The position numbers and the translations under genes are program-made. DNA of 63,008 bases, counting the filler, from Folioceros fuciformis (lineage: Eukaryota): the NCBI GenBank assembly GCA_049999805.1. It is 5 parts of 5 records of this genome, joined end to end, with 100 filler letters (N's around TTAATTAATTAA, not from the genome) between each part and the next. Parts side by side here need not be neighbours in the genome. Positions count along the whole stretch, not along the records: positions 51,860 to 60,544 come from JBNGIO010006056.1; 4 more parts are not named here. One strand, 5' to 3'. Under the pieces are notes generated by a model. The model was given only the letters and a program-made list of their open reading frames with translations, was not told where the DNA came from and did not search any database. This document shows positions 28,101-61,591 of the stretch, one piece after another; position 1 is the stretch's first letter; each line of letters starts with the position of its first letter.

Positions 28101-29389
28101 ATGGTGCTCCTGTAGCTAACACCTTGTTTTTGTGTGTGGGGTCAGTGACTAGACACTTGAGACCCGTGAAGGAGACATTTAATGTGTGCTGTCTAGTCAA
28201 CTTACGAACTAACACAAGGTTCTTCACCATGGAAGGTACGTGCAACACATCCTCTAACACCACTGTGGTGTTATCACTCAACATGATAGGAACTGACCCG
28301 GTGCCCTCTATTTGTAGGCCACTGTCATCGCCAAGAAGAACAAACTGACAAGGTGGAATGGACCTATATTCAGCAAAAGACTTCTTGCAATGGCATATAT
28401 GAGCAGACGCACCTGAGTCTATGAACCATACGTGCTTATTCGACGCAGTTGAGACCATGCATACAGCTAAGATAGGATTTCCCTTACGCTGTACAACATT
28501 AGATGCTAGTGGTGCCATCCGCCTTGGCTCACCTGCCTTCTTTTTCCGACAATCAGCTTCCCAATGGCCAGGAATGAGACACCAATTGTAGGGTCCCTTC
28601 TTTTTAGCTGATGGAGCTTGAAATGGGCGATTCTTAAAACCTGTGTTGTTGTTTGGTGTCCAAGACTGCCTCGGTGGTTGTCTCTTGGGACCCTGTTCGC
28701 ATATAGCGCCCTTGTTGAAGACTTTCCTCGGGAGGTGCCACCTTGATTCACAGTTCTGGTTGACTCTTCTTCGAGAAGAGCTCCAATCACTTCCGCCAAT
28801 GTAACATCAGGTGGCTGGCCTGGCGGAGCATTCTGTGCTGCAAGGTGCAAGGCAGAACTCTGGTTGCTTACAAAGGTGCGGTAGCTAGGAGGAAGAGAGA
28901 GAAGGAGGGCAACTGCTGCCTGCATCTCCGTGGTCCTCGTCCCGCTAGAGGTAAGTTTGGAACGTAACTGTCGAAACTTCACCACATGTTGTTCTACTTG
29001 TTCATTCTCATGCATCTTACAAGTATAAAATGCTCTTGTAGCTCCAACTAGAGATGAGCCATTGTTTACTTGATAAGTATGTGTAAGTGAGTCCCATGCT
29101 TCTTTTGTGTTCTCCATGTCTTGAGTGTGAGACATCATAGATCCATCCAGTGCGGACTGGATCACTCCAAGTGCTCTCAGGTCCAGCTTCTCCCAAGCCT
29201 CAATTTGTGCAGCAGATGAAGTAGCGGCACTGGCTTAGGTACAGTTCCAGTGACAACTCCCCACAGGCCATTCTCTTTCAGAATTATCTGGACTGTAAGT
29301 GACCAAATGTCGAACTGTGACCCTGAGAAGCGGTCTTTTTCTTTGAAATCTATCTTTAAGTTGGTGATAACTGGAGCCGGATTGGCCAT
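25133..29389 (-). pseudogene. gag-pol of copia B (frameshifted)
   Basis: Gag KDRFSGSQFDIW, protease WFIDSGASAH, integrase VHTDLCGP, RT HMDVKTAFLNG and LYVDD, RNase H LSSTEAEY / KHIDIKHHF. Confidence 0.93.
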
Positions 29390-30607
29390 GTTTACTAAGA
29401 TTTGATTTGCAAGTGTGGCTGCTACTAATTCAACTTGCTTCTTCCGTGCATCTGCAAGTGTCTTCCTAAGACGTGCTCTTTGGATGTGATCAAGGGCTGG
29501 ATCTACTTTAGGTGTACTACTGCCTTGTAAAGATGAAGCAGAGAAGAGAGAGAGCGGGTCTGAAGGATTAGGTGGAGGTGAGCTGCCCCTACTTCTACCA
29601 CGACCCTTACTCTTTGGCTTGCCTGTGCCTTTACCACTTTCTTTCCCTTTATCAGTCCAACTCCCATGTATAGCCTTACAAAACTTCAGCGGTTCCAAGC
29701 CCAACCAGTCCTGCTTGCTTGGCGCAGCATTGATGAGTTGCTCACACTGTTTGAATCATTCTCATGATAGGTGTTCCTTGTTTTGGTTTTTGCTGTGAGG
29801 TATGAACCGGTGCATCTGAGATTTGAATCGGCGTACTCAAGATTTGGAATGGCGTGATCGCCGCGCAGGCTCCTGGATAGAATTCTTCAAAGACGTTTGC
29901 AACAAATTCTTAATGTGCCTAGAGAGAGTCCTAATGTGAGTACTAGGACCTGTAATATCACTGGACAAATTGACAGATCGCTGGCAAACTTGCTTTGCGT
30001 GGTCTTTCAACAATGCGGCTACACGAGCATTCTGCGACTTAATCAGGTCGTACACCTCTACTAAAAGCTCATCAGTTGGTGTAGAATATGCATTAAAGTC
30101 ATAGGACTTGGGACGTGCAAGCTCGAGTGCTCTCTCTCAGAAATTGTGCGTGCGTTTTGAAAATTTTCCCTGATTTGACTTCTAAGTGAGGCAAGTGGAT
30201 CTGGTTTCTGGTGTCGCTGGCAAGATTGTATTGTGCGACGCCTATACTGACGCCTGTGATCATTGTGTGTGTGCGGAGGGTTGAAATTGCAGTGGGTGGC
30301 AAAGAAACGGTGCAGGTTCTGCAAGTGGATTTCCTCCAGCGCACCGTGGCGGCCAAGGAAGGGATCTGTTGGCGGCTGCTTGCCTCTACCTCGCGCTCTC
30401 GGCATAGCGCGCAATCAGTCGTAGTAGTGGCTGACTACGTCTGCAAGGAACGCGTCAGCCATCGCGCCAAACCTGATGAGTGACACACGAAGTGCTGAGA
30501 TTGCCACACGGAATTCCTTGTGGCTTAGATTCCTGATGCAGTTCCAACTCTTGCAGGTTTCACAAGCGCGCGGTGGCGGCGCATCCTCCATCACCGCTCT
30601 GATACCA

Positions 30608-30872
30608 TATAAACTAGGATCGAGGAGGCTGAGTGATAGAACAAGCATGTAGAGAATAGAAGAGAGTATATTCTTTACTTAGGCCGTGTGGCCTTATATA
30701 GGACTGAAACGATTATGTCATGTGAATGTGAACGGTACGGCGATTAAGTTTTTGGATCGCCGACCCTTGTGTGTGCCGATATGAATTAGTCAATTCATAT
30801 CTATGTACTCATTAGTCCTATTTAATATTAATGCTGGATATAATAATAATAAGCCTATTTATTCTACCAATA
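30608..30872 (-). repeat. 5' LTR of copia B
   Basis: Immediately followed on the minus strand by a tRNA-iMet PBS. Confidence 0.95.
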
Positions 30873-33071
30873 TCTTGAAGCAACAACCAAGCGGAGGCTT
30901 ATTATAGCAACTATCAAGGAGAGTGTCTGGCTGTGGTGTGGGTAGTCTCCCATTTCAAGCCATACCTATATGGGAAGGCCTTCACTTTGGTAACCGATTA
31001 TCAGCCTTGAAGTGGCTTATGACAAACACCAAGTTGAGTGGCAAGTTAGCTCGGTGGGCTATGATCCTACAAGATTATGAGTTTCAGGTGTACACCAGCC
31101 GGGAAACAAGCACCAAAACACCAACACCCTGTCCCGAAACCTGGGATATAGCTATGAGGACATCACTGAAGGACACCAAGATTCATATTTCAATGAGGGT
31201 GAGACTGTCCCATTGGCAGCTCTTGTGGCCATGACCTGTTTGGGACTGTTAGAGATAGCTGCTAGTGAGAAACGTCCTAAAGACATTTGGGAGGACAAGG
31301 AAGTGCTGGCCTTTTTGTAGACAAGTCAGCTAAATGCATCACTATTGCAGCTGAAACAAGATTAGATTCGTAACCATACCTCACTCTTCTACTGGCGGGA
31401 TGGGCATTTGCTGAGGAAGATGAGCAATGGGTTTGGTGTGCTTAGCGCCTCCATTAGAAGAGAAGGAGTAGATAATTCAGAGGGTCCACAATGACATGGG
31501 ACACTTTGGAGTTAAGCAAACTTACAACCTGCTTGTTGTGGTGCTCTCCTTCTTTGGTTAGGTGGAGTTGGTCCAGGCTTATGTGAGTGAGCGAGTGAGT
31601 GAGTGTGCGAGGGAAGGCATCGCACAAATGGGGTGGAGAGACAGTCCGACTGGCCTGACTAGGCTGCCAACAAGGGAGACGTCGACAATTCACTAGCTAC
31701 TACCTTGCCCCAATCTACAGGGGACCCCTAAGCTAGACCATACAGAAGCATTAACACTCCATCTGCCACATTGTTCGTCTTGTTGAACAGGAGCCAATTG
31801 ACGGTAAGGCATGCTACTCCCTGAATCCTTAAATCCTCTATGTCGTGAATCAACCACCAGTGTTCTTGAAAGATATGTCTGTCAAGAGTGCTTTGGTAGC
31901 CTCCTTGACCAAAGCCTTATTTCACTACAAGTTCAAATAAAGCCCTCCGTGCTTCGAGGTCGGCCACTAGTAGACTTCCCGCATCTTGGTGGACTCCTAC
32001 TTTCCCCACGTGCAACACCAAAGAGTTTGAGCAAATTCCTCGATTGCTGTTGTTGATTGGATCTTCCAAGGGAACCAGAATAGGCTCAACTCCCACTCGT
32101 CCATCAGGTCGCTAGCAGCCGTCATCCAAGGTGCAAAATTCAGGTACGCCCGCATCTGCATCTCGTCTTCGTTGATCCATAAGGCATTGCTGGCTTTGAG
32201 AAATTATCCTGGCGCCATTTGTGGGGAGGAAGTGGAGCAAGGGAAGAATGGGGGAAAAGAGGTGAGCAAGGTACTAGATCGCTAATGGAGTGGAGTAGTC
32301 GCATGAGAGGACAAGCAAGGAGTCGGACTGGCGATGGACTTTCGAATGGCGCTAGAGGAGGTGAGTTATGGGGAGGGAGGGCGCGCTAGCAACATAACAT
32401 CACAATACCTTAGTGTAAGAGCTTATGCTGCTGCTTCTGCCACCACTGCCATTGTCTAGAGGTGGTTACGCTCACTCATCCTCATGATGACAAGTACGTC
32501 GGACGTTGATCCGATCTTGAGTTGCTTCAGTCCACTTGCCAACTGGCTCGGTTCAAACCACTGAGTCCGACATGCCTCAAACTCCGAGGATCTGTAAGTA
32601 ATTACTAAGAAGGGGTTATTCATGCTTAAAAGAAAAGCAAAAACACACATAGGACTCTACTCCAATGAAGGGTTCATCGGCCCACCAGAGTACTACTTCG
32701 GTGTTTTGGTGCTCACATTGGTCATCCTCTTTCATATGTTGTAGCATTTTTTTGGCAAAGGGTTTCCATTGCTTTACAACAGCGTTGGCGAATAATGCCA
32801 TATACAAGACAACAACGTTGGCATGTGAGGCGGTGTCAACAACTCCAGTAGTAGGTAGACCCTTTCTTCTCCTTGACCATGATGTTTTAGGTGCTATTGG
32901 AAGTTATTAGGCTTCAAGGGAGTAGCCCCTAGTTTCCTACCATGGTTTATATCTCTCTCTAGGGGTAGATGGGTTTTTCCATCTTGATTTTCAAAAATAA
33001 ATAAGTTCATTCTTTAAATTCAAAACCTCTATGTATCTTAAGGAAAAAAGGTTATGGGATTATGGTTACAA

Positions 33072-42089: not shown

Positions 42090-42189
42090 NNNNNNNNNNN
42101 NNNNNNNNNNNNNNNNNNNNNNNNNNNNNNNNNTTAATTAATTAANNNNNNNNNNNNNNNNNNNNNNNNNNNNNNNNNNNNNNNNNNNN
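42090..42189. other. Artificial scaffold spacer
   Basis: TTAATTAATTAA at 42134-42145 within Ns. Confidence 0.97.
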
Positions 42190-45898: not shown

Positions 45899-48800
45899 CC
45901 GTGAGGGTGAGATAGTAGCGTGCTCCTCCTAGTGACGGTTCGTGAATCTTTCCGGAGATATCAGCATGGACAAGTTCCAATGTGGTGGTTGCCCTATGAG
46001 CATGCTTCGGAAAAGGGGACTCCTTCTGCTTCGCGAGCACATAGGACTCGCACACAGGGAGATGCCGAAAGCACTTGGGTAGGGGCTCTTTATACAAGTC
46101 TTGTGACGCAATAGATATAAGCTTGTTCTTATTGATGTGTCCGAGCCTGCATGCCATAGGGACGCTAGATCATCCAAGGTTAACCTCTGTAGTCTAGCTA
46201 CGAGGGTAGACGGCTCGCTTTCCCCGGCAAAGGATAGCTTATAGAGACTGTCCTGAGGATCAATGGTGAAGAGGCATTGCTCAGGGTTGGTGGCCCGGAA
46301 GATACGGCATGACCCCCTTTTGACAAGCATCTCAAGATCGCCATGCTTCAAAAGCTGGGTCATGGAGATGAGATTTTTGCCCATGCGAGGGACGAGGAGC
46401 ACAGCCTCCAATATAAGCACCGAACCATCCTTGAGGGAGAATTCGCAAGTGCCTTGTCCCTCAATAGGCAAGCTAGACCTACTTTGTTCATCACCAAGGA
46501 GCACCCTTTCTCTGAGGGGACGTGTGTCCAGCTTGGTGAATAGAGTACGGTCATTACAAATGTGGGCGGTGGCTCCACTATCTAGAAACCACCCCGAAGC
46601 TTGGTGCATCTGGGTGTTGAGGCAAACTGTAAGTATCTTAACGGTCTTTTTCTCTTGTGCAATGGTTTTCCCTTTGACTGCGACGCTGGACGCACGTTTA
46701 AGGGCGGTCCTTTGTGGTTCTCCGACGTTCTTCTTGCGACACTCTCATGCCCAATGGCCGGCAGATCCACACCAGTTGTAGTTTCCGGCCCAGCGAGGAG
46801 GAGCAGAGGTAGATTCACCTCTAGGGGTGAAGTTTGCTCTGCCTTTCTGGCTTTTCCCCGGCTGGAAACGGGTGGTCAGCGCATTATCTGCTTTGGGCTT
46901 GGACCCTCCTGCAGAACATAGGCGGCTCTGCTGCTACTGATATAGAGCACCAATGATATCCTCCACTGTTAGGGTGGGGGCGGTACCTGGGTTACCCTGA
47001 GTTGATACCAACATCAGGCTGGTAATAAAGTTTTGGTAAGATGGTGGCAGGCTCATCAACAACTGTGCAGAGGCGTCAGTCTTCGACATAGTTGAGTCGA
47101 GTGAGGCGAGCGGACCTCACAGTTGTCTGAATTTGGAATTGTGGGAGGAGATCGTGTCGGTCTCCTTCATCTTTAGGAGGCTAAATTCTTGCCTTACATT
47201 GTACATGGTTAGAACATTGTTAACGTTGTACATGTTTGATAGCTGGTCCCAAATTGCTGATGCTTCCGTAAGGAACTCCACACTGGGTACCAAGCTAGAG
47301 TCGAGGCCGCTGATGAGGAGAGTGATAGCAATCCCGTTCAAGTAGTCCCATCTTTCTATATTGGCAGCGAAAGGGGGTGGTATAGATGACGGGTTAAGCT
47401 TCGGTAGCATGGTGTCGACAATCTTCCAGATGCCCCCGACCTATCAAGATAGATTTCATGCGTATGTGCCACATCGGGTAGTGTTGTCCATTGAATCGAT
47501 CTTTCTCTTTCATGTGATCGGTGTAGACAGGGGCAGAGCCAGGGATGGTGGCAGCGCCACTTGTCGCCATAGCTGCTGTAGGGTTTAATGTAAGTGAGCC
47601 CAACTGCTCTCTAAGGTGATTCACAAAGGAGTCGTGGGTCGTGGTCATAAAAACTTGGCCAAAGGGGTCCGCGTAGGCTTAACTTCAGAAGATATAAACA
47701 AAAATTACAGGATAAGTTTGATCGTCAAAGTGAGAACCTTGTGCTGGTGTCCTCTTGGCACAACTACTGCCGACGTCTTGCAAATTAAGGGGCTGGTGAG
47801 CTGTCTTGGATGGCTCTGCTAGGCGGCGAAGTCGGTAGGCTAGGTCCACGAAGTACTCGGTGGTAAATTGAAGCTGGTCCCAAAGAGCCGAGGGGGAATC
47901 AGTGACCAAGCAGAGTGGGGGTGTCGATGCCGGCTCAATCTTCACGCGAGAGTCCTCTCCAAGGTGCAACTGGGTGTCAAGGCATCCGGCAAAGGGAAGG
48001 AAATCTAGAAGGAAATTATGGAGGAGAGGGTTTGGGTGTGAACCAGTGCCAGGGGAAACCGGTTCCGAATCAGTGCCCGAAAGACTCGGGTTCACACCGG
48101 TTGAAAGGGGGTAGGAAACCCACTCGATGAAACAACAACNNNNNNNNNNNNNNNNNNNNNNNNNNNNNNNNNNNNNNNNNNNNNNNNNNNNNNNNNNNNN
48201 NNNNNNNNNNNNNNNNNNNNNNNNNNNNNNNNNNNNNNNGGGGGTCCTGTCGGGCACGGGAGCGTGCTGGTTCCTTGAGTGGTGCGTCTCCTGCAGATTT
48301 GGCACACCGGATCATGGGCGATCCGGTGCGCCAGGCCCCATGAATCTATGTTGCTGGGCGCTGCACGATGGGGGCGCCAGTACGGCACGGAGATTGTGCT
48401 CCGGCGCGACCAGGATGAAGCGCCAGCGAGCCCGATTGATGAAGATCCACTTGCATCTTTGACTTCTAAGTTGTTCATCGTTCCTGCAAGTGCGCCTCAG
48501 GGCGCTTCGTCCTTGCTGTCACAAGTTCCTGCTCCTGTGGTGCACTGGGGGAATTGGAGGAGTCGTGTTGAAATTCCTCTTCATCGAATTGCAATCCTGA
48601 TGTTGGCCCGGTGACGATGAGGTCACAAGTGGCCCAATCCTTTGCAGTGATGGTCAGGTGGCCTCCTAGAGTTCATGGGTCATCCTCTATGAACCCGTGA
48701 AGGAGGCAATCCACATGGGGGCTAGAGGATGAGGAGTAGCTGCAGCGTCGTTGGCGTCGACGACAATTCAAAGGGTGCTGCGCATGCCGCGAACTCCACG

Positions 48801-49359
48801 CACTAGCCTGTGCCCGCCGGCGCCTAAGCAATCTTAAGTGCCCGCAAATCTTGGTGTGGGGGGAACGTCGAAAGGTAAGATCACGGTGCAAGTCCATGGG
48901 TAAGGCGATGGCAGGCCGGAAAACGAGAGCTGGAGGAGGAAGGGGGAGGGATGCCCTGCTTGTCCCCTGTCTCCCCTTTTAAATCCATCTATGGACCTGA
49001 TCGTTGATATCTCAAATCTAAGGGCAAGTAGTTGCAAGCGTAAGGGGTGTGGGGGCTGGTAACATGGGTTCTAATTGGAACTCCGCGGTTAAGCGCCCCC
49101 GACGCTCAATCAAGGCCTAGATGGAGGACCTTTGAGTAGTGTTTGTTTTTTTTTTTTTTTTTTTAATTTAGGCCGAGGGGGCTATACCCATCCTAGCCAT
49201 TCTAGGATGTATCTATCATTTTTGCTATTTGCATCTATCAATTTTGATTTGCTCTCAATTGATGGATCAGATCCATGGTGTCTTTTGCAGATCCATGGAG
49301 GGGATTTCCGAGAGATCATACACTGCTTGACAACAACTGCCCAACCATAGTACCAAGCC

Positions 49360-51759
49360 CCACTCGGCTACCTCGACCCTAGGCTACCCTACTGACTCAC
49401 TCGGCTACCGGGGGGGGGGTCTCTACAACTACCGAGGTAGGGTCTCAACTACCGATAGCCGCTTCGGCTATCTCCGTCGTCTTTCAACTACCGGTAGCCG
49501 CTTCGGCTACCTTTGTCACCTTTCCACTACCGTGGTAGGCCCCACCCCAAACCCTAACTAATTATTTTCGGCGCAGGCGCCGCCGCGGGTTTCCACCCAC
49601 GGGTTTCTGCCCAAGACATCCTAGACTTACAGGGCTTGGGTTACTCCATGCTCCTCACACATGCAAGGGCTAATCCTTGGGGAACGAAGCCTTGCGGATC
49701 AACCACACCTCCCCACACCCTCATGCAACACTCCCCTCACACACAAGAGCTCTGGTTCACAGTTACACAGGCCTGTCCCCAAGGGTCTCAATCTCCAACA
49801 ATTTCCAAAATCTTCCAGCAAATCCTTCACCACTCCTCACAATCCCTCACAATCTCTCATGGACTTCAACAACCTCCCACAGCCGCTCACAAACACTTCA
49901 AAATCTCGCAGAAACTCTCTAGATTTTGCATCCAATCTTCAGCATTCTTCCTCCATTATCTAGCAATCTTCTCAGCCGTTTTCTCTTTAGTTCTCTAGCA
50001 ATGTTCCTAGCTCTCCAGCAATGTTACAGCAACCTCAACAACCTTCCACAGTCCTCCACAAACGTCCAGGGATTCCTAAGAAATTCTCCAGCAATCTCGT
50101 CCGATCCTCAGCAAACTTTCTCAACAATTTCTCAGCGATTCTTCCAGCAGTCTTCAGTTCACCTCAATCTCTCAGCTTCCTCTTTCTCACCAGATTTAGT
50201 ACGTAGCTGATTGTTCAGGGAATAAGGGAAGGAGAAACTCCCTCCACTCTAGCAGTGGTGGATTCGTCCCCCTCTCCTCAGCTACGGACCAAAATCAGTC
50301 CTCACTCACTCCTTCTCAACTCACTCCAGCTCCTCAGCCTCCTTCTTCTCCTCTTCTCACTCACTCCTTCAGCCTCCTTCTCCTTCTCAACTCACTCTTC
50401 ACTCACGCCTTCACCCACACTTCAGCTCCTCATCTTCTTGCACGCTCTCTTCGCACACACACTCTTCAACTCCTGATTTGAAACGTAGCAAATGGTTAAG
50501 GGAATAAGGGAAGAAAACTCTCCTTCCACTCCGTGCAACTGGGGATTCGTTCCCCTCTCCACTCACCACGAACCAGAGTCGATCGTTCAGGGAATAAGGG
50601 AAGGAGAAGCTCTCCCTCCACTCCAGCATCGGTGGATTCGTCCCCCTCACTTTCCACTGCAGAACACAGCTAGCTGTTCAATGAATAAGGGACGGAGGTG
50701 CTCCTTTCACCCTTCGCAACTTGCAGATTCGTCCCCCTCACTTTCCACTGCAGAACACAGCTAGCTGTTTAATGAATAAGGGACGGAGGTGCTCCTTTCA
50801 CTCTTCGCAACTTGCAAATTCGTCCCCCTCACTTTCAACTGTGGAGCAAAAGTTCTCAACCCCCCCTAGGAGCGTCTCGCACTCACTGCCTCACCTAGAC
50901 CTCTCTAGTCCTACCATGGACAACGCAGGGGATCTCAACCGAGAGGAGTCTCAAACATTTGCTAATCAGAGAGGCACCAACAAGCCCCTTTTGTACAAAG
51001 TTTCCAAGAGTGGGAGCCACGGCCCGTCATAAAGTCTAGCTCTAAAATAGTCAACTTTAAAAAAGGTGCTCTTAATGGCAGGCGGCACCACGTCAGAATA
51101 GCATCTTACCAAATCTTATCTAAATACTATTTTCAGATGCAACCACTCCTGGCTTACCTTGGTGCCACTCTCTCTCCTCCTATTTATTCTTCTGGCCCAC
51201 CCTCCCCTGCCACACAAAATCTTCAGGCTCTCCTTTCATGTTGCTGATGGGGCAAATCCTTCCAGAAATATCCACCTCACTCTTGCTGCTGGTTGACCCA
51301 TCCTGGCTGTCCACTCTCTCTCTTCCCAGGATGCTAGTTGCCTCCTGTCACTCTGGCTGCAATTATTGCTATTCCAGGCCTCCTGGTGCAGGTAGAGGTT
51401 TTAGCAACCTTTTAGCAACCTCAAGAACCTCTTATCTGAACGCAAGAGGTTTTAGCAACCTTTGCAAAAACCTCTAAAACCGTCGTCTAACAACCGTGAA
51501 CCTCTGATTCCACAACCGTCGTCTCCCTTTGGCAACCGGCGTTGTCTCTTTGGGTACCGGTAGCCACTTCGGCTACCAGCGTTGTCGCTCGACTACCAGT
51601 AGCCCCTTCGGCGATCGTCGTCGAACTTCGGCTACCTCCCTTCGGCGACCGTCATCTCCCTTTGACTACCGGCGTCGTCCTTCGGCTACTGGTAGCCGCT
51701 TCAGCTACCTGCTGTCGCCAAGTCACAGCATCCCTGTTTTCCAGCCTAAGTCCACAACT
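49360..51759. repeat. Unclassified non-coding repeat element with internal arrays
   Basis: ctaccggtagccgcttcggcta-type motif clusters at 49365-49535 and 51540-51720, a strand-biased C/T/A-rich tract, and a 91-bp array. Confidence 0.6.
50495..50845. repeat. ~91-bp tandem repeat, 4 copies (plus a detached copy near 50215)
   Basis: gtt.a.(g/t)gaataaggga....gattcgt.cccctc units start at 50495, 50585, 50676, 50767. Confidence 0.88.
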
Positions 51760-51859
51760 NNNNNNNNNNNNNNNNNNNNNNNNNNNNNNNNNNNNNNNNN
51801 NNNTTAATTAATTAANNNNNNNNNNNNNNNNNNNNNNNNNNNNNNNNNNNNNNNNNNNN
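51760..51859. other. Artificial scaffold spacer
   Basis: TTAATTAATTAA at 51804-51815 within Ns. Confidence 0.97.
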
Positions 51860-54800
51860 GTCTTGCTGGGGTCGGACGGAACTCACCGTCCTGCCATGGG
51901 GGTTGATCCCTTGCACGCTGAAGCTTTCTACAGACCATTCTGGTGGAGAGGAGATTTCACGCATGTTGCACGAATTCCTCTAAGGATGAATAGGAGTGGT
52001 GGCAAGAGCAGGACGAGGATGACAGGCAGCACCATGATTGCCCACAGTGCTCAGAGTGAACATCGACATGAGATGTGGGAGGAAACGCAGGAGTTATCCT
52101 CTCTGGAGATGCCAAAGCCAAGAGAGCAGAAGGGTGTGCTTAAGGTGGTGCGCTCAGAATATTTGGATCAAGCGAGGGTTCGAGAGAACCAGCGAAGGAA
52201 GGAGGATCGACCGTGGAATCTCACAGACACATGTCCTGAGAGGTCGATCCCAGGTATGGGGCCTGCCAAGTCGGGAGATCGACGCATCGATGATGCTCTA
52301 GTACGATGGAAGGTGGGCGCTCAAGGCATCCATTTGTTGGAGCTCTGCTCGGGAATCAGCAGTGGCCTGGAAGCGGTGTTGCAGTGTGGCGTCAAGATAC
52401 GGCAATATACCTGCGTGGAGAAGGATGAGAAGATTCGAGCTGTCGCTAGGGGTCGAATCCTCAGGTTCTGCAAACAGTATCCAACACTACTGAGCGAGGA
52501 AGCAGTTCGAGGCTGTCAGAGCAGGCTGCCCACAAACGTGAACCTGGTTGGGAAGCGGCAGCTACAAGCCTTGTCAAGCCCAGTGGATATGCTGATCGCA
52601 GGATGGGAATGCAAGACATTTTCGACAGCAGGCAGAGGCAACGGTGAAGGCGTTTCGTTGGCTGCTGAGCTCGCACGAATCACGCGAGAAGTCCAGATTG
52701 CGAATCCACGATGTTGGTACATTCTGGAGAATGTGTGTGCAGCCATGGACAAACGTCCAGCTGTTAGGGCCCTGTATGAAGAGATTCGGGCGTGGTTCGG
52801 CAATGAGCTGATCATGGACGCGGTGCAGTGTGGCTCATATGCACACAGGCTTCGCAGTTACTGGACAAATGTGGCTAGACTGGAGGTGCTCAGACAGCAC
52901 AGGAATTTGACAACTCCGAAGCGGAAGGTTGTGGATGATATCCTAGAGTTGGGAAGGTGCTCACAACAGGTGAAGAGGATGGACAAGTTGCCATTTTACC
53001 CTGTGAATCGAGTAGGGGAATCCAGAAGGGCATGGCCAACTCTGGTGAGCACACCGCAATCTTATGCCTTCAGACCAGGAGGAGATGGTGTGATTCTGGA
53101 TTTGAAAGGGAATGAGCTTGGAGAGCTCAATGTTGAGGAACGCGAGCAAGCGATGGGCTTTGCCAAGAAGGACACTCAGACCATGGGCATCACAGAATCT
53201 GCAAGGTGCAGGATGCTCGGACAGGCATTTGACTTGTACAGTCTAAGGTGGCTGGTAAGCACAGGCTTGGCGTTCCAACTTGCAGAAGCCGAAGGGAAGC
53301 GAAGGCCTTTCCTCAAACTACTGCAGGATAAAGAGGTTCCTAAGGCAGAGGAAGACGAGCTGCTGCGGGAGAGATTCAGCATGGCCGCTGTGGATACTGA
53401 ACTGTCCACCAAGAGTGTGACGAAAGAGGTTCATGTATGGCACATTGCAGAAGATGTGAGCCCGGAAGATAAGCATGAAGAAGGACATGTGTTGACAGAG
53501 TCCGTCAGGGATGTTTGGAGACATCCTCAAGCCCTACAGTTGCTGAAGGAAGGCACAGTGCTTGGAATGACTGAAGCAGGCTTGGCTAAACTCAGAAGGC
53601 GCGTGGCCAGATACTCATGGAAAAATGGTGAGCTGCTACTGTTAGAAGGAGAACTCGTGAGGAAAGTACCAAGTCATGAGGAAAGAGTGGGCATAGTGAC
53701 CAAGGTGCACGAAACCCTTGGCCACTTTGGTGTGAAGAGGACACACCACATGCTGAAAAGCACGTATTTCTGGTCAGGGATGTATGCAGATGTCGAGAAG
53801 GTGGTTGCTAAGTGTGCTGCATGTGATGCAGTCAAAGCCCGATTTAACACCCAGGATGTGGTGTTGCACTCCCTACCAATCAAGGGGCTATTCTTTAGAT
53901 GGTCGGTTGACCTTATGCCAGAGCTTCCCCTCACAAAGCAAGGTAACCGACATTGCATGGTCATGATTGAGCATTTCTCTAAGTGGGTTGAAGTAGCGTT
54001 CTTGCCACAGAGAACTTCACACTACACTAGCAGAGCGTTTCTGCAGTGTGTGCTCAGCCGATTTGGGAGCTGCGCGGAAGTGCTCACAGACCAGGGTAAC
54101 GAGTTTCGAGGTGAATTCCAGACCTTGCTCGACAGGAGTCTCATTGATCACAGGAGGACATCGAGGGATCATCCACAGGCCGATGGCCTGGCAGAAAGGC
54201 TAGTGCAGACCTTCAAGGATGCACTAAGGAAATACTGCATTACTGTGGAGCCCAAGTGTTGGGATGAATTGCTCCCTTACATCGTGTTGGGGTACAGGGT
54301 CAGTGTGCAGGCAGCTCTTGGAAGTTTCAGTCCATACTTTTTGTTATTCGGACGCAACGCAGTGTTGCCGAATGTGGTGAAGGACACCTACTCCATCCCT
54401 GTTGACTGGAGCAAAGATGCAAATGTGTGCTTGGCACAGGTTCAAGCCAGAGCAGAAGTATTTCAAAGAATTCTTCCCATGGCTATGGATAATTTGGCTG
54501 TGGCCCAGCATTGGGACCAGCTGAGGTATGCTTATACGCGGGGGGGCTCGTGGAAGCCCAAAGGCCGCAAGTTTGCATCTGGAGATTACGTGTACTTGCA
54601 GCGCAGGCCTGCAAGCACGTTAGATGTCAGCACAGGAAGGCTTATCCTGCGAGTTGTCCAGGTTGGTGAGCAAGGTGTGGTTGAACTTGAAGGAAGAGAT
54701 GGCAGAAGGTGCAAGGAACACATGAAGCACTTGGCTCCATGCCATTTGCCTGATCTGGATACACGAACTGTGCCTCAGACCTGGACGCCACCAGCAGATT

Positions 54801-55383
54801 TGCCCTGTGAGGAGTGTGGACACACAACTGACGACGAATTCATGTTGCTATGTGACAGGTGTAACCGTGGTTACCATCTGTTTTGCCTCAAACCGGCACT
54901 GGATAGTGTTCCAGAAGAAGAATGGCTATGTGAGCACTGTAATGTGCTAAGTGTGAACGTGGCTCTTACAGAAGGTGATACTGAGGTTGTCTTAAATTCA
55001 CACACGTTGGAAGCTGAAACAGCAGTTGACAGTCTCTCTGGATTCAAGCTGCCCAGTGAGATTACGATTACACAGGAGGCACAAGAAGACCCATCAGATG
55101 ATGAGGATCTAGAAGATGACGCCATTCCTCCTCCTCGGTGAGAACCACCGTCAGTGTTGGACGAGCTACGTTCTCGCTGGTGGGGACGTTGGTAAGTAGT
55201 TGTTTGTTTTCCTAGGCCAAGTTGGTCTAAACAATTTTGTGGGAAACCAGGTGGCTAGGCCTCCAAGTTTCCCAGGGGGGCTGTTGACGGGTCCCGGGTC
55301 TGCCTCTCTTAGGCAAACCTAGTCTCTNNNNNNNNNNGTAGACAGGCTAGGTAGGCATGCAGCTATGCGGCTGCTGCGCGACA
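51860..55383 (+). mobile_element. Ty3/gypsy LTR retrotransposon carrying a DNA methyltransferase (5' end lost at scaffold edge)
   Basis: Gypsy-type integrase ORF, PPT cagggggggc (55273-55281), LTR TGTTG...CGACA (55282-55383, gapped). Confidence 0.9.
51863..55141 (+). CDS. Polyprotein (5'-partial): C5-cytosine DNA methyltransferase (DNMT3-like) + integrase (H2C2, DDE) + PHD finger
   Basis: MTase motifs I LLELCSGISSG, II VEKD, IV LIAGWEC, VI ILENV, VIII AHRLRSYWTN, IX EREQAMGF, X RMLGQAF (about 52330-53270); integrase HETLGHFG..CAAC, WSVD / LTDQG / GLAER; PHD CEEC..MLLCDRC..YHLFCL..WLCEHC (54806-54940). Confidence 0.93.
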   Translation: MLGSDGTHRPAMGVDPLHAEAFYRPFWWRGDFTHVARIPLRMNRSGGKSRTRMTGSTMIAHSAQSEHRHEMWEETQELSSLEMPKPREQKGVLKVVRSEYLDQARVRENQRRKEDRPWNLTDTCPERSIPGMGPAKSGDRRIDDALVRWKVGAQGIHLLELCSGISSGLEAVLQCGVKIRQYTCVEKDEKIRAVARGRILRFCKQYPTLLSEEAVRGCQSRLPTNVNLVGKRQLQALSSPVDMLIAGWECKTFSTAGRGNGEGVSLAAELARITREVQIANPRCWYILENVCAAMDKRPAVRALYEEIRAWFGNELIMDAVQCGSYAHRLRSYWTNVARLEVLRQHRNLTTPKRKVVDDILELGRCSQQVKRMDKLPFYPVNRVGESRRAWPTLVSTPQSYAFRPGGDGVILDLKGNELGELNVEEREQAMGFAKKDTQTMGITESARCRMLGQAFDLYSLRWLVSTGLAFQLAEAEGKRRPFLKLLQDKEVPKAEEDELLRERFSMAAVDTELSTKSVTKEVHVWHIAEDVSPEDKHEEGHVLTESVRDVWRHPQALQLLKEGTVLGMTEAGLAKLRRRVARYSWKNGELLLLEGELVRKVPSHEERVGIVTKVHETLGHFGVKRTHHMLKSTYFWSGMYADVEKVVAKCAACDAVKARFNTQDVVLHSLPIKGLFFRWSVDLMPELPLTKQGNRHCMVMIEHFSKWVEVAFLPQRTSHYTSRAFLQCVLSRFGSCAEVLTDQGNEFRGEFQTLLDRSLIDHRRTSRDHPQADGLAERLVQTFKDALRKYCITVEPKCWDELLPYIVLGYRVSVQAALGSFSPYFLLFGRNAVLPNVVKDTYSIPVDWSKDANVCLAQVQARAEVFQRILPMAMDNLAVAQHWDQLRYAYTRGGSWKPKGRKFASGDYVYLQRRPASTLDVSTGRLILRVVQVGEQGVVELEGRDGRRCKEHMKHLAPCHLPDLDTRTVPQTWTPPADLPCEECGHTTDDEFMLLCDRCNRGYHLFCLKPALDSVPEEEWLCEHCNVLSVNVALTEGDTEVVLNSHTLEAETAVDSLSGFKLPSEITITQEAQEDPSDDEDLEDDAIPPPR

Positions 55384-55960
55384 GGGACAAATGAGCAAGT
55401 TTTGCTAACAATAGAAGAGGAGTTGAAGGGTTGGCGCGGGGCAGGTTTGGAGCTTGCTCGTAACGCTTGCTATGACGTCCAGAAGCTTCCCCTTCCCTTA
55501 TTCCCTGAACTGTTAGCCGTGTTCCGGAATTCTGAGAATGGAAGTGTGTGTGAAGATGAAGATTGGAGATGTGTGTGAAGAGAATGTGTGAGTGAGTTGA
55601 GAAGAGAAGAAGAGAAGGGCGGCCAATCCTTGAACACGATGCGAGGTGTGAGGCAAGAGAGGAGAAGTGTGGCTGATCACCGAACGCGATGCGAGGTGAG
55701 AGGGAGGAGATTGAGATTAGGGAGAAGAACCAACTGCAACTAATTGAAGAAGATCGCTAAGAGATTAAGGAAGATAGTGAAAGATTGTTGGAGATTAGAG
55801 ATGATTTCTAGAAGATTTTTGAGAGATTTCTAAGTGTTTGTGGAAGATTGTTGGAGATTGAGGAAGATTGTGGAGAATTGCTTAGGAATTGCTAAAGATT
55901 TTTAAACATTAATAGAAGATTTGGAGACATTTGGAATTAGGCTTGTGAAAAACAAGTGTG
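55384..55960 (-). repeat. Inverted copy of the repeat family at 49.7-50.5 kb (probable insertion target of the gypsy element)
   Basis: ccttcccttattccctgaac (about 55491-55510) is the reverse complement of the 91-bp unit core; the G/A/T-rich tract mirrors 49800-50150. Confidence 0.65.
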
Positions 55961-56103
55961 AACAAAGCTCTTGTATATTTTACTTGTGTGGAAAGTCTTG
56001 CATNNNNNNNNNNNNNNNNNNNNNNNNNNNNNNNNNNNNNNNNNNNNNNNNNNNNNNNNNNNNNNNNNNNNNNNNNNNNNNNNNNNNNNNNNNNNNNNNN
56101 NNN

Positions 56104-56385
56104 GAGGACACCATAGGGCCAAACGTACTCTTTTAACTGTTGTATTCGACGCTCTTTTAACTGTTGTGTTCGAGGCTCTTTTAAATGTAGTGTTCGAGGA
56201 CACATAGGGCCAAACGTACTATTTTAAATGTTGTGTCCGAGGACACCATAGAGCCACATTGTGTCCGAGGACACCATAGGGCTACATTCACCCTCCAGGG
56301 AATCCAGTGAAGGTACCGTCGTCTTTTAAATGTTCCTTGGACACCATGGCGGCCACATTCACCCTCCGGGCAATCCAGTCAACGC
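56104..56385. repeat. Short tandem repeat array (24-bp subunits and gaggacaccatagggc motifs)
   Basis: ctcttttaactgttgt.ttcga and gaggacaccatag recur several times next to an N gap. Confidence 0.8.
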
Positions 56386-56548
56386 CCAAAGAGTCCTGTT
56401 GCACTGCTTCCTGAAGGACGGTTCGACATACATCGACCAGTACCGGTCTGTGAGCTACATCTTCCGTGCCTGGGCTTGTATACAGGCCAGGCGGTAGCCA
56501 CAAGTATTGCCCCACGTAGACTTGGCTCACTAGCAAGGCCTTACTCAC

Positions 56549-57636
56549 CCGGAAAGGTTCGAAGGAAGGGAACCTGGACCAGTGCTCCACATCCACGTCA
56601 CGCCTGTGAGACGAGCAGCAGACTTCAATTCAAACCACCGCACCTCGGACTCGTTCAAAACAAAGCTATGCAGGACTTTAACACACACTCACGATGCATG
56701 CCCCTGGCCAGTGTAAAACCAATAGTTCTTGTTGTCAACAATTTGACCTTCCCAGAACGTCACCACCTGCATACCAAGCCACATTCTGCTCGTCAGCCTC
56801 ACAGTCACACATGATCTGCCAGCCACAGGAACATAGGGTTTTCCTACAGGTACCAATGAGGTGGAATTTCAAGGCAAATCCTGGACTACTCCCAGTGTTC
56901 TGTCAGCGATGGATGCTGGAAAAAAACAAGCTCAAGGGCAAACTCACCCATCGCGAAATTCGCTGGGAGGCACAGAGCTCACAATCACAAAACCATCCTG
57001 GATCTGCTATGCTGCCAAAAAATGCGAAGAGCACTGTGGCATCCACCTTCACTTACTTGAATCTCTGCTTGGGAAACATTTAGAGCCTCCATACTGCCGC
57101 ACAGGTACCCGCGTTGTAGGTCACATCCCTGAATCCGCACGTTGACCTTCCACGCCTCATCCTTTGCCCCGTTCGACACATTTTGCGTTCCCGTGAAAGC
57201 CTGCACCCACGGCCGAACAACTTGTGATTCCTCCCGCTCGCCTCCCAGCCCCGACCACAAAACGCATTCCGCTCCGTGCTGCTCTCCAGCAAAGGCGAGG
57301 ATTTTCAGCCCCAGTGCCCACCAAAACATTTCCCATCCGCAAATCTGCCCTAATCCCACGCTTTGCCTGCCCGGCGCACAGCCCCAGACGGACCTGCAAC
57401 TGCAACGGGACTGGTAGCATGTGCCGGACAGCGGGGCAGAGCATCACGTACCTGGCCGACGGAGAGGAAGGAGCACGTTTGGAAAAGCGCCTGACCAGGC
57501 ATGGAAACCGCAAGACGCGCCGGCGGAGGAGCACAATTCCTGCCCAGGTGCCACTACTGCTGCACAGAGAAGGCGTGGCAAGGCCAATTCAGCAGCTGCT
57601 GCACCCGGACGATTCCAGACACTCTTGCGCTGGCAT
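56549..57636 (-). CDS. GID4: GID4/Vid24 (GID/CTLH E3 ligase substrate receptor), 3' exons missing
   Basis: Spliced exons read CSFLSVGQ | AFTGTQNVSNGAKDEAWKVNVRIQGCDLQRGYLCGSMEALNV (57200-57057) | VVTFWEGQIVDNKNY (56766-56693) | DVEHWSRFPSF (56603-56549). Start uncertain. Confidence 0.88.
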
Positions 57637-58003
57637 CGGTAAAATCTCCATAGCGAGAATGGGTCAACGAGATGCGAGCTTTTTTAAATTCGGAACAATC
57701 GTTCCCGTTCCTTGCCCACATCAACGCCCGTTTAACCATGGGTGTCCCGGTGGGAAAGGAAGGAGGGCGGCCAACAGTTTTCTCTTCTCACGAGGTTACG
57801 CCACGATACATCCAGTGTCACACCGTACACGGCATCAACGCCACCTACACCCCGGCATCAGCGAGCCAGACGCACCCTGCTCTCAATTCTGATTGCCCTA
57901 GTACCCTCCTCGTCAACAAGGGCCAGGTGCACCACCTTCCATATTGTACTTGTCTCGCAACTGGCAAAGGGCGTCGTCATCTCTAGAAGTGATCTGGCTC
58001 CCT

Positions 58004-60214
58004 TCATGCCCCGACATTTTTGAGGGAGGGCAGGGTTGGAGAGCTAACCTCCAGCACAATCCTTGAATTGAAGAGGGCGACATCAGCAGAGACCTTGAGG
58101 CACCTCGGGGTCTTGAACTGGCTGTGTGTTGCACCTCGCGCCACTGCACCAGCTAACAGCAGATCGAAAGTGCCTGACCCCACAATTCTCAGAGTCAGAG
58201 GTGCGATAAAGCCTTCGTTCCTGTTTCTCCTGTAAGTGAAGCCTAGCGAGTTTTCCAATTTTTCACAGCATTGCTCCAGGACGGACTGTAGGACTACTTC
58301 CTGGTGTGAGAGCTCCCAGAAGATTACATAGCGCCCTGGAGTGGCGGAGAAGTCGACGCAACTCGTGTAGTCGGTCACGGTGATGCTCCTGCGCTGTTTT
58401 AGAATAAGGGCAGCTGCCCCCACAGCTGCCAGCAGCTCACTTTCCGTTGTTTTATCAGTATCCACGCTAAGAACCAAATTCCTTCGTTCTACGAACTGGA
58501 ATTCAGGAATGCGGTTGTAAAACCTTGCCACCCTCAGGCAGTCTTCCATTCTGTAGCGATACAGTCCTGTCCATCCAAGAAAACGTCGCAAGTTATGAGT
58601 TCATGCCATGAGGGGCAAGGTGACCTGAGGCATGTGGAATGAGTGGCTCACCAGTGTGGGTCGTCACCACTACTTCATATAACTTCCCCAGCTTCACGCC
58701 TGTGATGTCAACCGTCCTGGTAGCATGGTCCGAACTCTCTGTGCTGTCCGACTCCGAGTGACCACCTGCTTGCTCGTCTCCTTGTCCCACGTCTTCCGTG
58801 ATGGGCAGAAACTCGAAGTACATCATGAATGGCAGTAGGGTGTAGGCCACGTCCTCTGGAGGACAAGCTGGTCTTAAGTTTGTCCCGAGAAACCCCTCTG
58901 AAGAAGCGTAAGTCATAGATACGATCGGGATGTTTCCCAGGTAGCGGCGCAGGATTGGCAAGTAGGCGGCCATGCTCCCTGTGACTATGCTTTCCGCCAG
59001 TATTATGTTGGGCCACAGCTCCGGAATACTGCCATCCCACGTCGGTCTGCACCATTCATGAAAACGACATCTAAAGTCAGAACAATGCCGGGAACCGGGT
59101 GCTTGCTTGCATGTGTAAGTATGTACGCACCATAATGCGGGCGCACACCTACCGGCGAGAGCAGATGGATTCAACACGATCGGCCAGGTCCGGATTAGGG
59201 CCACCCATCAACCTTTCCACTACCTCCCTGACAGCAGGATCCTGGATACTGTTATCCAGCTTGCCCTGTCGAATATCCCAACAGAGCTGCTGCCAGTTCT
59301 TCTCCAGGTACTGCAAGGCTCTTGCAAGACTAGGGGCAAACAAGGTCCCTATTCTTAAAACCTCTTTGAACTGTACCAATCCACAAATCCAGTGGCAGTA
59401 GAGCATTTGGCTGTCTTTCTCAGGCGTGAGAATGACTTCGCCTGGACTGACCACCGTCTTGGCGAAGGAGGAAAGAGGCCCTCTTCCTGAGAAAATAGCT
59501 CTGAGAAGACTAGCTGTCACAGGCTGGGCAACTAGCCCGCCTCTTGTCTGCTCTGCTGGTCTCACACCATAGAAGTAGAGGCCCTTACCACCCTTAGCCA
59601 AATCAGGATACGCCCTGTTCAAGACATCCGACAGACCCACATAAATTCCACGCCCCCATCCTCAGTCGCTGTCCCATCAGTGACAAAAGCCCGCACACTC
59701 ACAAAGTGGTCACCATGCTGGTGATTGATGAGTAGACCATTTTCCTAAGACTGTCGCTCTCCACGGTTGGGAAAAACTTCCTTTCTCCGCTCGAAGTTCC
59801 AGAACTGGCAACAAGACAGCACACGAGCAGCTCAACTTAACGCTGCTGTGTCACGTCACAGGGCATTGTCAAGCAAATGCAGAACTGTCCATTTGAAGCA
59901 GCTCACCTTGTGTAAAGCTCCACAATCCGACCTGAGCACAGGATGGGCGACTCCTCAGAGTTCTCCCCATCAGCGATGCGGTACAGGTCCTCTTTAATCG
60001 ATTCATAATCACTCAGCGGCACACAGGACTTGAAGGACTCCACGTCCGTCCTCCCGTCCAGCCCATACCTTGCCAGGTACTGACAATGTGCATTCTCCTT
60101 CAGGATTGAAGCCAAAACTTCCTGCTGTACCTTCCCTGGATTGTGGGTGATGAAGTTGACGTATTCCAGTACGCCCTCGGGTGAGTCAAGGCTGGGCAAC
60201 GACTGTCCGCTCAT
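58004..60214 (-). CDS. GH3: GH3 acyl acid amido synthetase, 5 exons
   Basis: FKSCVPLSDYE, SSGTSSGERK, YASSEG, YFEFLP, GLYRYR, PGRYVIFWEL and QFKTPRC motifs with GT-AG introns. Confidence 0.96.
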
Positions 60215-60544
60215 CCTGCCTGCTACGAAAACTACTCAACCAACACCAACAGTGGAAAACTGTACAACACAATCCAGGGTCCACCAGCCTGTGAGAAACT
60301 CCCCGCTCCAGGGCCCAGAACTGCAATCGTCGTCTCTAGCTCTGTTCTCAAGTCACGTGGGCCACACGGAAGCTAAGGGACATTAAGGAGTCAAAATGAC
60401 TAGCTGTTATACCCCAGGATCGGCAGCTGGCACATACCCCACCCAACTTGTGTTGCTGCTTAATTGCCGTCTATCAAATTTCCATCACGTCTTTCCATGC
60501 TCACAAGCCAGTGCTACCTGCACAATTTGCAACATGAAATATGC

Positions 60545-60644
60545 NNNNNNNNNNNNNNNNNNNNNNNNNNNNNNNNNNNNNNNNNNNNTTAATTAATTAA
60601 NNNNNNNNNNNNNNNNNNNNNNNNNNNNNNNNNNNNNNNNNNNN
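60545..60644. other. Artificial scaffold spacer
   Basis: TTAATTAATTAA at 60589-60600 within Ns. Confidence 0.97.
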
Positions 60645-61213
60645 AAGATGTCCTCACCATGCATGGGGAATAGTGGAAGGGTTTCAATCTCCTGGTGATC
60701 TCCTCCTCGTTGTTCCATGAAAGATTGTCCTCCTGTTGTGCCAAAGGAGGTAGTACTGGTATTAGTGTTGAAGGGTGAGGAGGAATATGGGTCAACACCA
60801 TAGCCGACACGTGACCCAAAGTTTAGATCAATGGATCTACCATCATCAGTAGAACTAGTGGATCCAAAATTGAGATCGAGAGATCCACCAACCGGAACGT
60901 TCCGAAATTCCTTCAACTTCTGCCTCTCACGAGCCTTGAGGTTCTGGAACCAAAAGAAGACGTTTTTGTCCTCGATCTGCCCATACTGTTTCAGATGGAG
61001 GCAGATCTCTTGAATCTGCTCTGGAGTTGGGTACTTAAAACCCTTATCATAGTAAAGGCCCTTGAGGATTCTTAGTTGAGGCGGTGTGGGAGCCCACCGG
61101 TTACTACTCCCGGCTGCTTGGATGCTTCCTCCCTCCTCGGTTGGTTGCTGGGCTTGTAATTCCATTTGTTGCTGGGTTTGTAACTCCATTAGTTGCAGAG
61201 TTCGTGGTTCCAT
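60645..61213 (-). CDS. WUS: WUSCHEL-like homeobox protein, intronless, 3'-truncated by gap
   Basis: Homeodomain [43 protein letters not shown] with the LYY insertion typical of WUS, and WUS box ETLPLFP. Confidence 0.9.
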
Positions 61214-61322
61214 GTTGATGAAGAAAGGATTTGAGTTTCGAAAGAAAGGCTGAAGGGTTGAGAGAGAAAGGCTGGAACTCGGAAGAATTTTCTTTTGGAG
61301 TGAACAGTCGCTCAGAATGCAC

Positions 61323-61331
61323 CTATTTATA
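61323..61331 (-). promoter_or_regulatory. Candidate TATA box of the WUS-like gene
   Basis: TATAAATAG on the minus strand, about 110 bp upstream of the ATG. Confidence 0.5.
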
Positions 61332-61591
61332 GAACGAGTGAGCAGATCTCCACCGTTGGATCGACGATCTCTGAGATTAAATCTACGCGTTGGATTAAAG
61401 TCACCCGAAAACACGGAAAAGCTGTTGGCGCGTGGAGGACACGTGGGGGAACCAAACGAATCTCGAGGAGCTGTGACAGACAAGCTACAGCNNNNNNNNN
61501 NNNNNNNNNNNNNNNNNNNNNNNNNNNNNNNNNNNNNNNNNNNNNNNNNNNNNNNNNNNNNNNNNNNNNNNNNNNNNNNNNNNNNNNNNNN

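Follow-up and report, generated by a model that had tools for sequence, protein, structure and literature searches.

A DNMT3-like methyltransferase domain in a Ty3/gypsy element of the land plant Folioceros fuciformis, probably a derivative without reverse transcriptase

Overview

The stretch of DNA analysed here, referred to as the window, comprises 63,008 nucleotides of assembly GCA_049999805.1 of Folioceros fuciformis. Positions 51860-55383 are read as the 3′ part of a Ty3/gypsy long terminal repeat (LTR) element that carries a DNMT3-like cytosine-5 DNA methyltransferase domain, has become a derivative lacking reverse transcriptase (RT) and would serve as a methylating module; the probability of this whole statement is put at roughly 0.6. 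One part of it is much firmer, namely that a land plant harbours a gypsy-type element with a DNMT3-type domain, which is very probable. Copies of the element are known from this one window and from contigs of sequencing runs X1, X3 and X4 (organism A), and short near-identical pieces from X5 and X6 (organism B). A cytosine methyltransferase in a retrotransposon is a paradox, as methylation is the main weapon of the host against retrotransposons. To our knowledge, published cases of methyltransferase-bearing retrotransposons come only from dinoflagellates and a single charophyte alga. A land-plant family of many young copies would carry the phenomenon into a lineage with a plant-type methylation system, where one could ask whether the elements mark their own copies, imitate gene-body methylation or influence their sites of insertion.

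The open frame and its integrase and PHD domains

The element is delimited by the following features, with residues counted from position 51863.

51860-55141, plus strand: open pol frame of about 1092 codons and a stop, its 5′ end cut by the scaffold edge
51860-51994, plus strand: tail of an aspartic protease (PR), starting V-L-L-G-S-D, a weak match in the expected register to a hidden Markov model (HMM) of the tails of eight relatives
52319-53287, plus strand: DNMT3-like cytosine-5 DNA methyltransferase domain, residues 153-475
53472-53475, plus strand: branch point of contigs, where an in-frame deletion probably took away RT and RNase H (RH)
53675-53839, plus strand: zinc domain of the integrase (IN), Pfam Integrase_H2C2, residues 605-659
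53900-54199, plus strand: integrase catalytic core with D, D and E, Pfam rve, residues 679-770
54806-54940, plus strand: C-terminal PHD finger, C4HC3, Pfam PHD, residues 982-1026
55142-55383, plus strand: 3′ untranslated part and terminal repeat, ending ...GCGCGACA (...ACA), the LTR start not being fixed without the 5′ LTR
1-176, plus strand: 3′ terminus of a second copy, with different host DNA from 177

The frame runs for 1092 residues to a stop codon at 55139-55141, and the probability of meeting no stop in so many random codons is about 1.6e-23. An earlier note on this DNA had described a single stop-free frame of 1092 codons, starting at 51863, in which the methyltransferase is fused to a complete gypsy-type integrase. 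Both observations hold, the fusion being upheld by Pfam, by profile comparison with solved structures and by fold. Within the frame, Pfam scores are 59.1 bits for Integrase_H2C2, 43.2 for rve and 41.5 for PHD. The ligands of the integrase and the PHD finger are complete (H-H-C-C, the core D, D and E, and C4HC3), and the integrase matches the solved integrases of Ty3 (E 1.3e-14) and PFV (8.2e-14). Pfam finds no match to RVT_1, RNase H or gag in the 1092 residues. The description of the frame in the same note as an intact retrotransposon reading frame has to be abandoned: it is cut by the scaffold edge, begins in the tail of a protease and has neither RT nor RNase H, and this copy therefore cannot be autonomous. 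As a side observation, the best match of the PHD finger (residues 979-1027, 54797-54943) among solved structures is the PHD finger of plant ATXR5 (E 7.4e-14), with MLL3, WSTF and UHRF1 ranking behind it.

The methyltransferase domain

Judged by its profile and its modelled fold, the domain is a true DNMT3-type C5-methyltransferase domain, the activity of which is presumed. The Pfam score is below threshold. The DNA_methylase family (PF00145) has a gathering cut-off of 22 bits, and the window reaches 19.2 bits with the whole frame and 21.4 with the domain alone; among the Pfam profiles that the earlier note had named, rve and PHD are thus matched and DNA_methylase is not. The methyltransferase call consequently rests on the family profile, on the PF00145 matches of the relatives and on the fold. 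In family alignment A1, made of the piece from the window and 37 short phmmer matches, 35 of the 38 rows match PF00145 at E≤0.01 (best 2.6e-17). Compared with solved structures, the A1 profile matches DNMT3A best (E 1e-24) in three stretches, covering motif I, motifs IV to VIII and motifs IX to X. DNMT3C, DNMT3B, plant DRM (1.7e-15) and M.HhaI (3e-10) follow. An AlphaFold2 model of the domain, built on A1, has a mean pLDDT of 82 and a pTM of 0.79, with disorder only past residue 351 of the piece. When this model is compared with the PDB by Foldseek, all matches listed are DNMT3A, DNMT3B or DNMT3C (best E 2e-16), with TM scores, for the target, of 0.78-0.82 on catalytic-domain chains at 18-21% identity. 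The likeness to DNMT3, which had been suspected from motif VIII, is thereby borne out.

The motifs are placed as follows.

Residues 160-171: motif I
Residues 246-254, 52598-52624, plus strand: motif IV, A-G-W-E-C-K-T-F-S, with the catalytic Cys at residue 250 (52610-52612)
Residues 286-291: motif VI (ENV)
Residues 326-336: motif VIII (R-x-R)
Residues 425-433: motif IX
Residues 451-457: motif X

Motifs I, IV with its Cys, VI, VIII, IX and X stand in canonical order, as had been claimed, and without circular permutation. The catalytic Cys, the E of ENV and both R of RxR are invariant over the 38 family rows and are kept in the window. In total, 47 of the 53 columns conserved in at least 80% of the family are retained, other members deviating at 0-13 of them. 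Two features that had been noted as oddities are ordinary variants of the family. In motif I, C takes the place of F in 10 of the 31 rows with a residue at that position, and the WEC in place of PC in motif IV reflects an E for P that is shared by 18 of the 38 rows.

A large family with more than one domain order

A phmmer search with residues 140-560 against 1.84 billion cluster representatives (clusters at 50% identity) returns 934 matches at E≤1e-3, 472 at E≤1e-10 and 142 at E≤1e-30. The relatives are 30-45% identical over a matched region corresponding to residues 153-475, and are long polyproteins with RVT_1, RNase H, protease and zinc knuckle beside the DNMT. Domain orders were placed by BLAST in 244 non-PPR proteins, with near-identical cluster members included, and the counts are not independent. 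A DNMT is present in 214 of them, distributed as follows.

Type A, 105 proteins: RT-DNMT-IN 76; PR-RT-DNMT-IN 8; RT-DNMT 21
Type B, 24 proteins: PR-DNMT-RT-IN 6; DNMT-RT 3; PR-DNMT-RT 2; DNMT-RT-IN 1; PR-DNMT 12
DNMT-IN without visible RT, 33 proteins: all but one with fewer than 200 residues upstream
DNMT alone, 52 proteins

The family, with 934 clusters and at least two domain orders, is of a size and a variety of layout well beyond what the literature suggests. Thirty relatives were looked up for their source. Those with a named organism come from Hariotina reticulata and Enallax costatus (chlorophytes, EukProt) and from Closterium sp. NIES-68 (a streptophyte alga, GJP34393.1). The remainder come from metagenome or Logan assemblies, and none of the 30 is from a land plant or from Klebsormidium. 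In one relative, P0136 (2122 residues), a protease-tail-like stretch (915-967) is followed by a DNMT (1236-1537) and an integrase (1764-2010), and neither RT nor RNase H is found in it by Pfam or BLAST. Given P0136, forms without RT may recur in the family.

Scaffold joints, the end of the element and its host

The window chains at least five scaffolds. Their artificial joints have the form N44-TTAATTAATTAA-N44 and lie, without strand, at 18182-18281, 42090-42189, 51760-51859 and 60545-60644; apart from these joints, the window contains 100-N gaps and a single 10-N gap. Linkers of this type, which contain a stop codon in each of the six frames, serve to chain unplaced scaffolds, and adjacency across them carries no meaning. 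As the open frame starts 3 bases past the linker at 51760-51859, its 5′ end is cut by the scaffold edge, and the DNA to the left of 51860 is not a known neighbour of the element. No gag, protease or RT of the element was found in a search of the rest of the window, the left-hand scaffold (48240-51759) included, which turned up nothing but unrelated, degraded gypsy fragments. A gag would be expected past the scaffold edge. The scaffold of the element (51860-60544) holds its 3′ part, a flank of repeated DNA, a 100-N gap, a GID4-like gene and a GH3 gene.

The 3′ end is defined by a second copy at the beginning of the window. Positions 1-16 equal 55312-55327 and positions 131-176 equal 55338-55383, beyond which the two loci diverge. 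The 10-N gap at 55328-55337 stands for 114 bases that can be read at 17-130, and loose ends of X1 and X4 contigs agree with them. Contigs of X3 and X4 leave the window at 55383/55384 with yet other letters. The divergence of the two copies together with these loose ends places the 3′ end of the element at 55383. A terminal LTR had been proposed, of which the 3′ end is thus confirmed; neither a 5′ LTR nor a target-site duplication is visible in the window.

The second copy ends on a contig (1-18181) that is free of gaps and bears plant genes:

5286-7811: E-type PPR gene, 841 residues, E motif 53.2 bits
11595-12740, plus strand: metaxin gene, nearest Atlas clusters Streptophyta

E-type PPR proteins are typical of land plants. 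Of the best 120 matches listed for this PPR protein, 32 come with a named organism, which is a land plant in every case (Diphasiastrum 14, Cryptomeria 9, Adiantum 6, Sphagnum 1, Ceratopteris 1, Taxus 1). The earlier placing of the element in a land plant is sustained by this second copy.

That the element belongs to a contaminating alga, or that its scaffold is a chimera, is very improbable. Such an origin would suit the fact that all named relatives are algal (Hariotina, Enallax and Closterium), and the window strings scaffolds together across linkers and gaps, the link from the element to GID4 and GH3 crossing a 100-N gap. Against it, the 3′ end of the second copy runs without any N into plant DNA bearing the E-type PPR gene, and the element is found in runs of three studies labelled organism A. 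Its contigs in X1 are about 22-46 times deeper than the single-copy plant flank, and its GC content (0.52) and observed to expected CpG ratio (0.53) resemble the values of the plant genes (0.52-0.53 and 0.59-0.60).

Even less credible is a DNMT3 gene of the host that became fused to the integrase of a transposon through an assembly error, or a single-copy gene that has been domesticated. Bryophytes do possess DNMT3 genes, according to the relevant part of PMC10952607, and the assembly is a draft. The same adjacency of DNMT and integrase is nevertheless present in 117 relatives (84 with RT upstream and 33 cut like the window), and the junction is crossed by an independent X3 contig of 1669 letters (52498-54166) and by X4 contigs. 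The element is moreover multi-copy, has a defined end and is devoid of introns.

Lack of reverse transcriptase: internal deletion or scaffold edge

The frame of protease tail, DNMT, integrase and PHD finger is probably that of a non-autonomous derivative from which RT and RNase H were removed by an in-frame deletion. Identity to the nearest relative, P0336 (2358 residues), is 47% over 537 residues of IN-PHD and 39% over 367 residues of the DNMT. In P0336, DNMT and integrase are spaced by about 540 residues, against 27 in the window, and this interval holds RVT_1 (1443-1596) and RNase H (1660-1789). At the other end of the frame, the first 44 residues align with the protease end of type B relatives. 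An HMM of eight protease tails gives the window 13.2 bits, and none of 2000 shuffles exceeds 6.5 bits. The Pfam-placed proteases of P0336, P0040 and P0017 end at the aligned tails, and the distance from protease tail to DNMT is 152 residues in the window as compared with 151-196 in P0020, P0014 and P0336.

A quick maximum-likelihood tree of transposon-borne domains only was built from 69 of 171 DNMT rows, comprising all 18 of the PR-DNMT type, the window, 35 of the 89 of the RT-DNMT type and 15 of the 63 unclassed rows, the last two sets drawn at random. All 35 sampled type A rows fall into one group (SH-aLRT 88), and the window lies outside it. The contigs of two DNA runs point in the same direction. 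A contig of X1 matches the window from 53472 on, after 91 unlike letters, and one of X4 matches it up to 53475, beyond which 255 letters are unlike it. Translated in the frame of the element, the initial 30 letters of this X4 branch give K-I-I-D-M-L-E-K-N, which resembles the M-L-E segment preceding RT in type B. On the simplest account of all these findings, RT and RNase H were lost in frame from a type B element, full-length relatives of which would still be in the genome.

Several of these points are open to objection. The match to the protease tail is weak, with 13.2 bits from the HMM and a pairwise E of 1.2 to P0336. In the tree the window stands beside P0336 and P0020 with weak support (75), the quick tree shares the A/B labels of the survey, and 12 of the 24 'B' proteins are PR-DNMT fragments in which no RT is seen. 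The interpretation of the branch point rests on 30 visible letters, or nine residues. Furthermore, a DNMT adjoining the integrase is the rule in the commoner order RT-RH-DNMT-IN (84 proteins with RT upstream), and RT could therefore sit past the scaffold edge.

The copy would then be the 3′ part of an autonomous PR-RT-RH-DNMT-IN-PHD element whose RT and RNase H lie upstream and were lost at the edge of the scaffold, an unlikely but by no means negligible alternative. It draws on the 84 RT-bearing proteins in which the DNMT directly precedes the integrase and on the 33 more that are cut like the window, and also on P0003, P0040, P0328 and P0330, each of which aligns colinearly with the frame in a single stretch of about 900 residues, from the DNMT through the PHD finger. 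In such relatives the end of RNase H lies 167 to about 300 residues ahead of the DNMT, farther out than the 152 residues that the window shows. This alternative is countered by the match of the first 44 residues to protease tails at a spacing like that of PR-DNMT proteins, since the protease tail of the commoner type sits about 1000 residues before the DNMT. P0336, in which RT and RNase H separate the DNMT from the integrase, is the closest relative for both domains, the DNMT falls outside the RT-DNMT-IN group of the tree, and the contigs branch at 53472-53475. An internal deletion in an element of the P0336 layout is accordingly preferred.

Copies, age and transcription

In X1, sequencing depth is 356-452 in the four listed element contigs (53472-55310) versus 9.9-16.5 in three contigs of the GID4-GH3 flank. 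The resulting figure of about 22-46 is a ratio of depths and no copy count. The same four contigs have 1-3 differing letters in 411-589, placing the copies about 0.2-0.6% apart. Taken together, the depths of single contigs suggest some tens of near-identical copies. When 214 X1 contigs are divided into four classes by identity, 58 are at least 99% identical to the window, 19 and 56 fall into the intermediate classes and 81 are below 90%. The last of these indicate that older relatives exist too.

In copies that differ by so little, youth by itself would lead one to expect an open frame, and a reading of the long frame as a sign of selection is not supported. At six listed positions of the frame, X1, X3 and X4 all depart from the window. 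The stop codon and the end of the frame are variable in individual contigs. At 55140 the only X1 contig (depth 356) has another letter in the middle of the stop codon and the frame reads through; in the letters of the window, the next in-frame stop after 55139-55141 lies 17 codons downstream. In one X3 contig, 182 bases are left out (55003 to 55186), with 7 shared letters at the joint and without intron-like ends, which takes away the end of the frame.

None of the runs listed as containing the element is recorded as RNA. A contig of X3 from which the four introns of GH3 are spliced out identifies this run as RNA. X3 holds the element in three contigs at a depth of 6-11, one of them spanning 52498-54166. 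The ratio of X3 to X1 depth is about 0.02 for the element, 0.01-0.04 for non-coding repeats of the flank and about 1.4 for GH3. These data do not support a claim of transcription, as the ratio of the element is not above that of the flank repeats and genomic carry-over of a repeat of about 30 copies would explain it. Depletion of CpG was tried as a sign of methylation and dropped, with 0.53 in the element and 0.59-0.60 in plant genes showing no difference.

X5 and X6, which are from organism B of the same study, contain short near-identical pieces of the element at a depth of 2-4 and diverged pieces of the integrase at a high depth of 100-640. These pieces may reflect shared descent, transfer or carry-over between samples.

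Proposed mode of action

The ancestor would have had the order gag-PR-DNMT-RT-RH-IN-PHD, from which an in-frame internal deletion would have removed RT and RNase H. Full-length relatives could then have provided RT in trans, allowing the derivative to spread to some tens of near-identical insertions. The methyltransferase would be made within Pol and would travel with the integrase, so as to act on newly made cDNA or on the insertion site. The PHD finger may tether the integrase to histone H3 tails and thereby bias the landing site, as chromodomains do in chromoviruses. Self-methylation was proposed for the algal elements by de Mendoza et al. in the main text of PMC5890265.

A domain that no longer methylates DNA, being either a decaying passenger or a protein with another role such as nucleic acid binding, is the less favoured but most substantial alternative. 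The observations that count against a working enzyme are several. K251, which directly follows the catalytic Cys, is private to the window (1 of 38 rows, Q in 35), and a conserved R twelve residues on is G in the window only (1 of 38 rows, R in 32). The Pfam DNA_methylase score is under threshold. The copies are near-identical, and their open frame is uninformative on selection. Eight listed differences in the frame comprise 3 synonymous and 4 non-synonymous changes and 1 at the stop, with 110 further differences unclassed; 4 of the 7 classed in-frame changes are thus non-synonymous, and the eight give no evidence of purifying selection within the plant. The Klebsormidium gypsy DNMT, the only one of its kind tested, gave no methylation in yeast, a result that its authors call inconclusive in the main text of PMC5890265. 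The decay of the domain is in turn opposed by the 47 of 53 conserved columns that are kept, a number inside the range of other members (0-13 deviations), by an intact Cys, ENV and RxR, by a confidently predicted fold of the catalytic core and by the conservation of the domain over hundreds of relatives that are 30-40% identical.

In its boldest form, the proposal would be that land plants harbour recently active gypsy elements with a working DNMT3-type methyltransferase, against the claimed loss of transposon-borne methylases on land, that the form multiplied in this plant has shed RT and RNase H and retained protease tail, DNMT, integrase and PHD finger within a single open frame, and that the module of methyltransferase, integrase and reader is what counts for the spread. 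This is a speculative extension and rather improbable as a whole. If true, each integration would go together with a mark on the new copy or on the site where it lands, and relatives could be affected in trans as well.

Flanks and other features of the window

The remaining features are listed below.

55384-56003, no strand: insertion flank of other repeated DNA that is not part of the element, followed by the 100-N gap at 56004-56103 and then by GID4 and GH3
56390-57451, minus strand: GID4-like gene, spliced, with a Vac_ImportDeg match and spliced contigs
58004-60235, minus strand: GH3 gene
60647-61489, minus strand: homeodomain gene
22600-23193, minus strand: exon of a pectin acetylesterase gene

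GID4 and GH3 lie on the scaffold of the element, as had been reported, beyond the 100-N gap. Introns of host genes are short in X3 contigs (85-290 bases).

The element seems to sit inside another repeat family. Arrays of a 91-base tandem repeat at 50180-50816, on the scaffold to the left, share an inverted core of 27 bases with the flank at 55484-55510, and a 50-base tandem pair is found at 55608-55707. Elsewhere in the window, degraded fragments of gypsy RT, RNase H and integrase are present at 24257-24589 and 30870-31645 (plus strand), with up to 67% identity to P0336 over 43 residues. They appear to be split by a nested copia element at 25961-29755 (minus strand), with its pol in four broken frames. 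No DNMT match is seen beside these two gypsy fragments.

Comparison with known systems

The closest described case is KnitGypsy-Dnmt3 of Klebsormidium nitens, in which a DNMT3-type domain lies in the Pol of an LTR gypsy element with a Ka/Ks below 0.2 across copies, as given in the main text of PMC5890265. According to that text, it has in common with the Folioceros element a non-rearranged DNMT3-type domain in the Pol frame of an intronless, multi-copy gypsy element in a streptophyte host. This likeness is drawn from the description, there being no K. nitens protein among the 30 relatives looked up. In contrast to KnitGypsy-Dnmt3, the Folioceros element resides in a land plant, and the copy described here is without RT and RNase H. 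It also has a PHD finger after the integrase, of which the main text of PMC5890265 makes no mention. SymbioDIRS-Dnmt3 of Symbiodinium, likewise treated in PMC5890265, performs de novo CG methylation in yeast, which is the sole functional evidence for self-methylation in that main text. It too has a DNMT3-type domain within a retrotransposon Pol. It differs, by the same account, in being a DIRS element with a tyrosine recombinase, in its dinoflagellate host and in its independent acquisition of the domain; the Folioceros element has a DDE integrase.

P0336, Closterium GJP34393.1 and the proteins of Hariotina and Enallax share the DNMT family (33-41% identity), the integrase and the PHD finger. 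In contrast to the copy described here, the longest of them retain RT and RNase H, which precede the DNMT in Hariotina and Enallax and follow it in P0336. The Closterium model ends after the DNMT, and none of these relatives is from a land plant. The catalytic domains of animal DNMT3A, DNMT3B and DNMT3C are the best match in profile and fold and have the same unpermuted order of motifs, unlike DRM. They differ from the domain in the window by their low identity to it (18-21%), and the latter is without PWWP and ADD and has an E or P before the catalytic Cys and a longer insert between motifs VIII and IX.

Chromoviruses are gypsy elements with a chromodomain at the C-terminus of the integrase. 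The Folioceros element resembles them in having a histone-reader domain at the C-terminal end of the integrase region, presumably to steer integration. It departs from them in that the reader is a PHD finger and is combined with a DNA methyltransferase. PHD fingers in retrotransposons have already been described, as stated in the relevant parts of PMC6673714 and bioRxiv 10.1101/2021.11.30.470311.

No land-plant case of a DNMT-bearing retrotransposon was found in a literature search with subscription journals and supplements outside its scope, and the remark in the earlier note that it knew of no characterised case agrees with that literature. A passage of one opinion paper (PMC6338049) goes further, holding that land plants are without transposon-borne methylases, which were lost on the move to land. 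The element of Folioceros is the same invention as in the algae, now in a land plant and as a probably non-autonomous copy.

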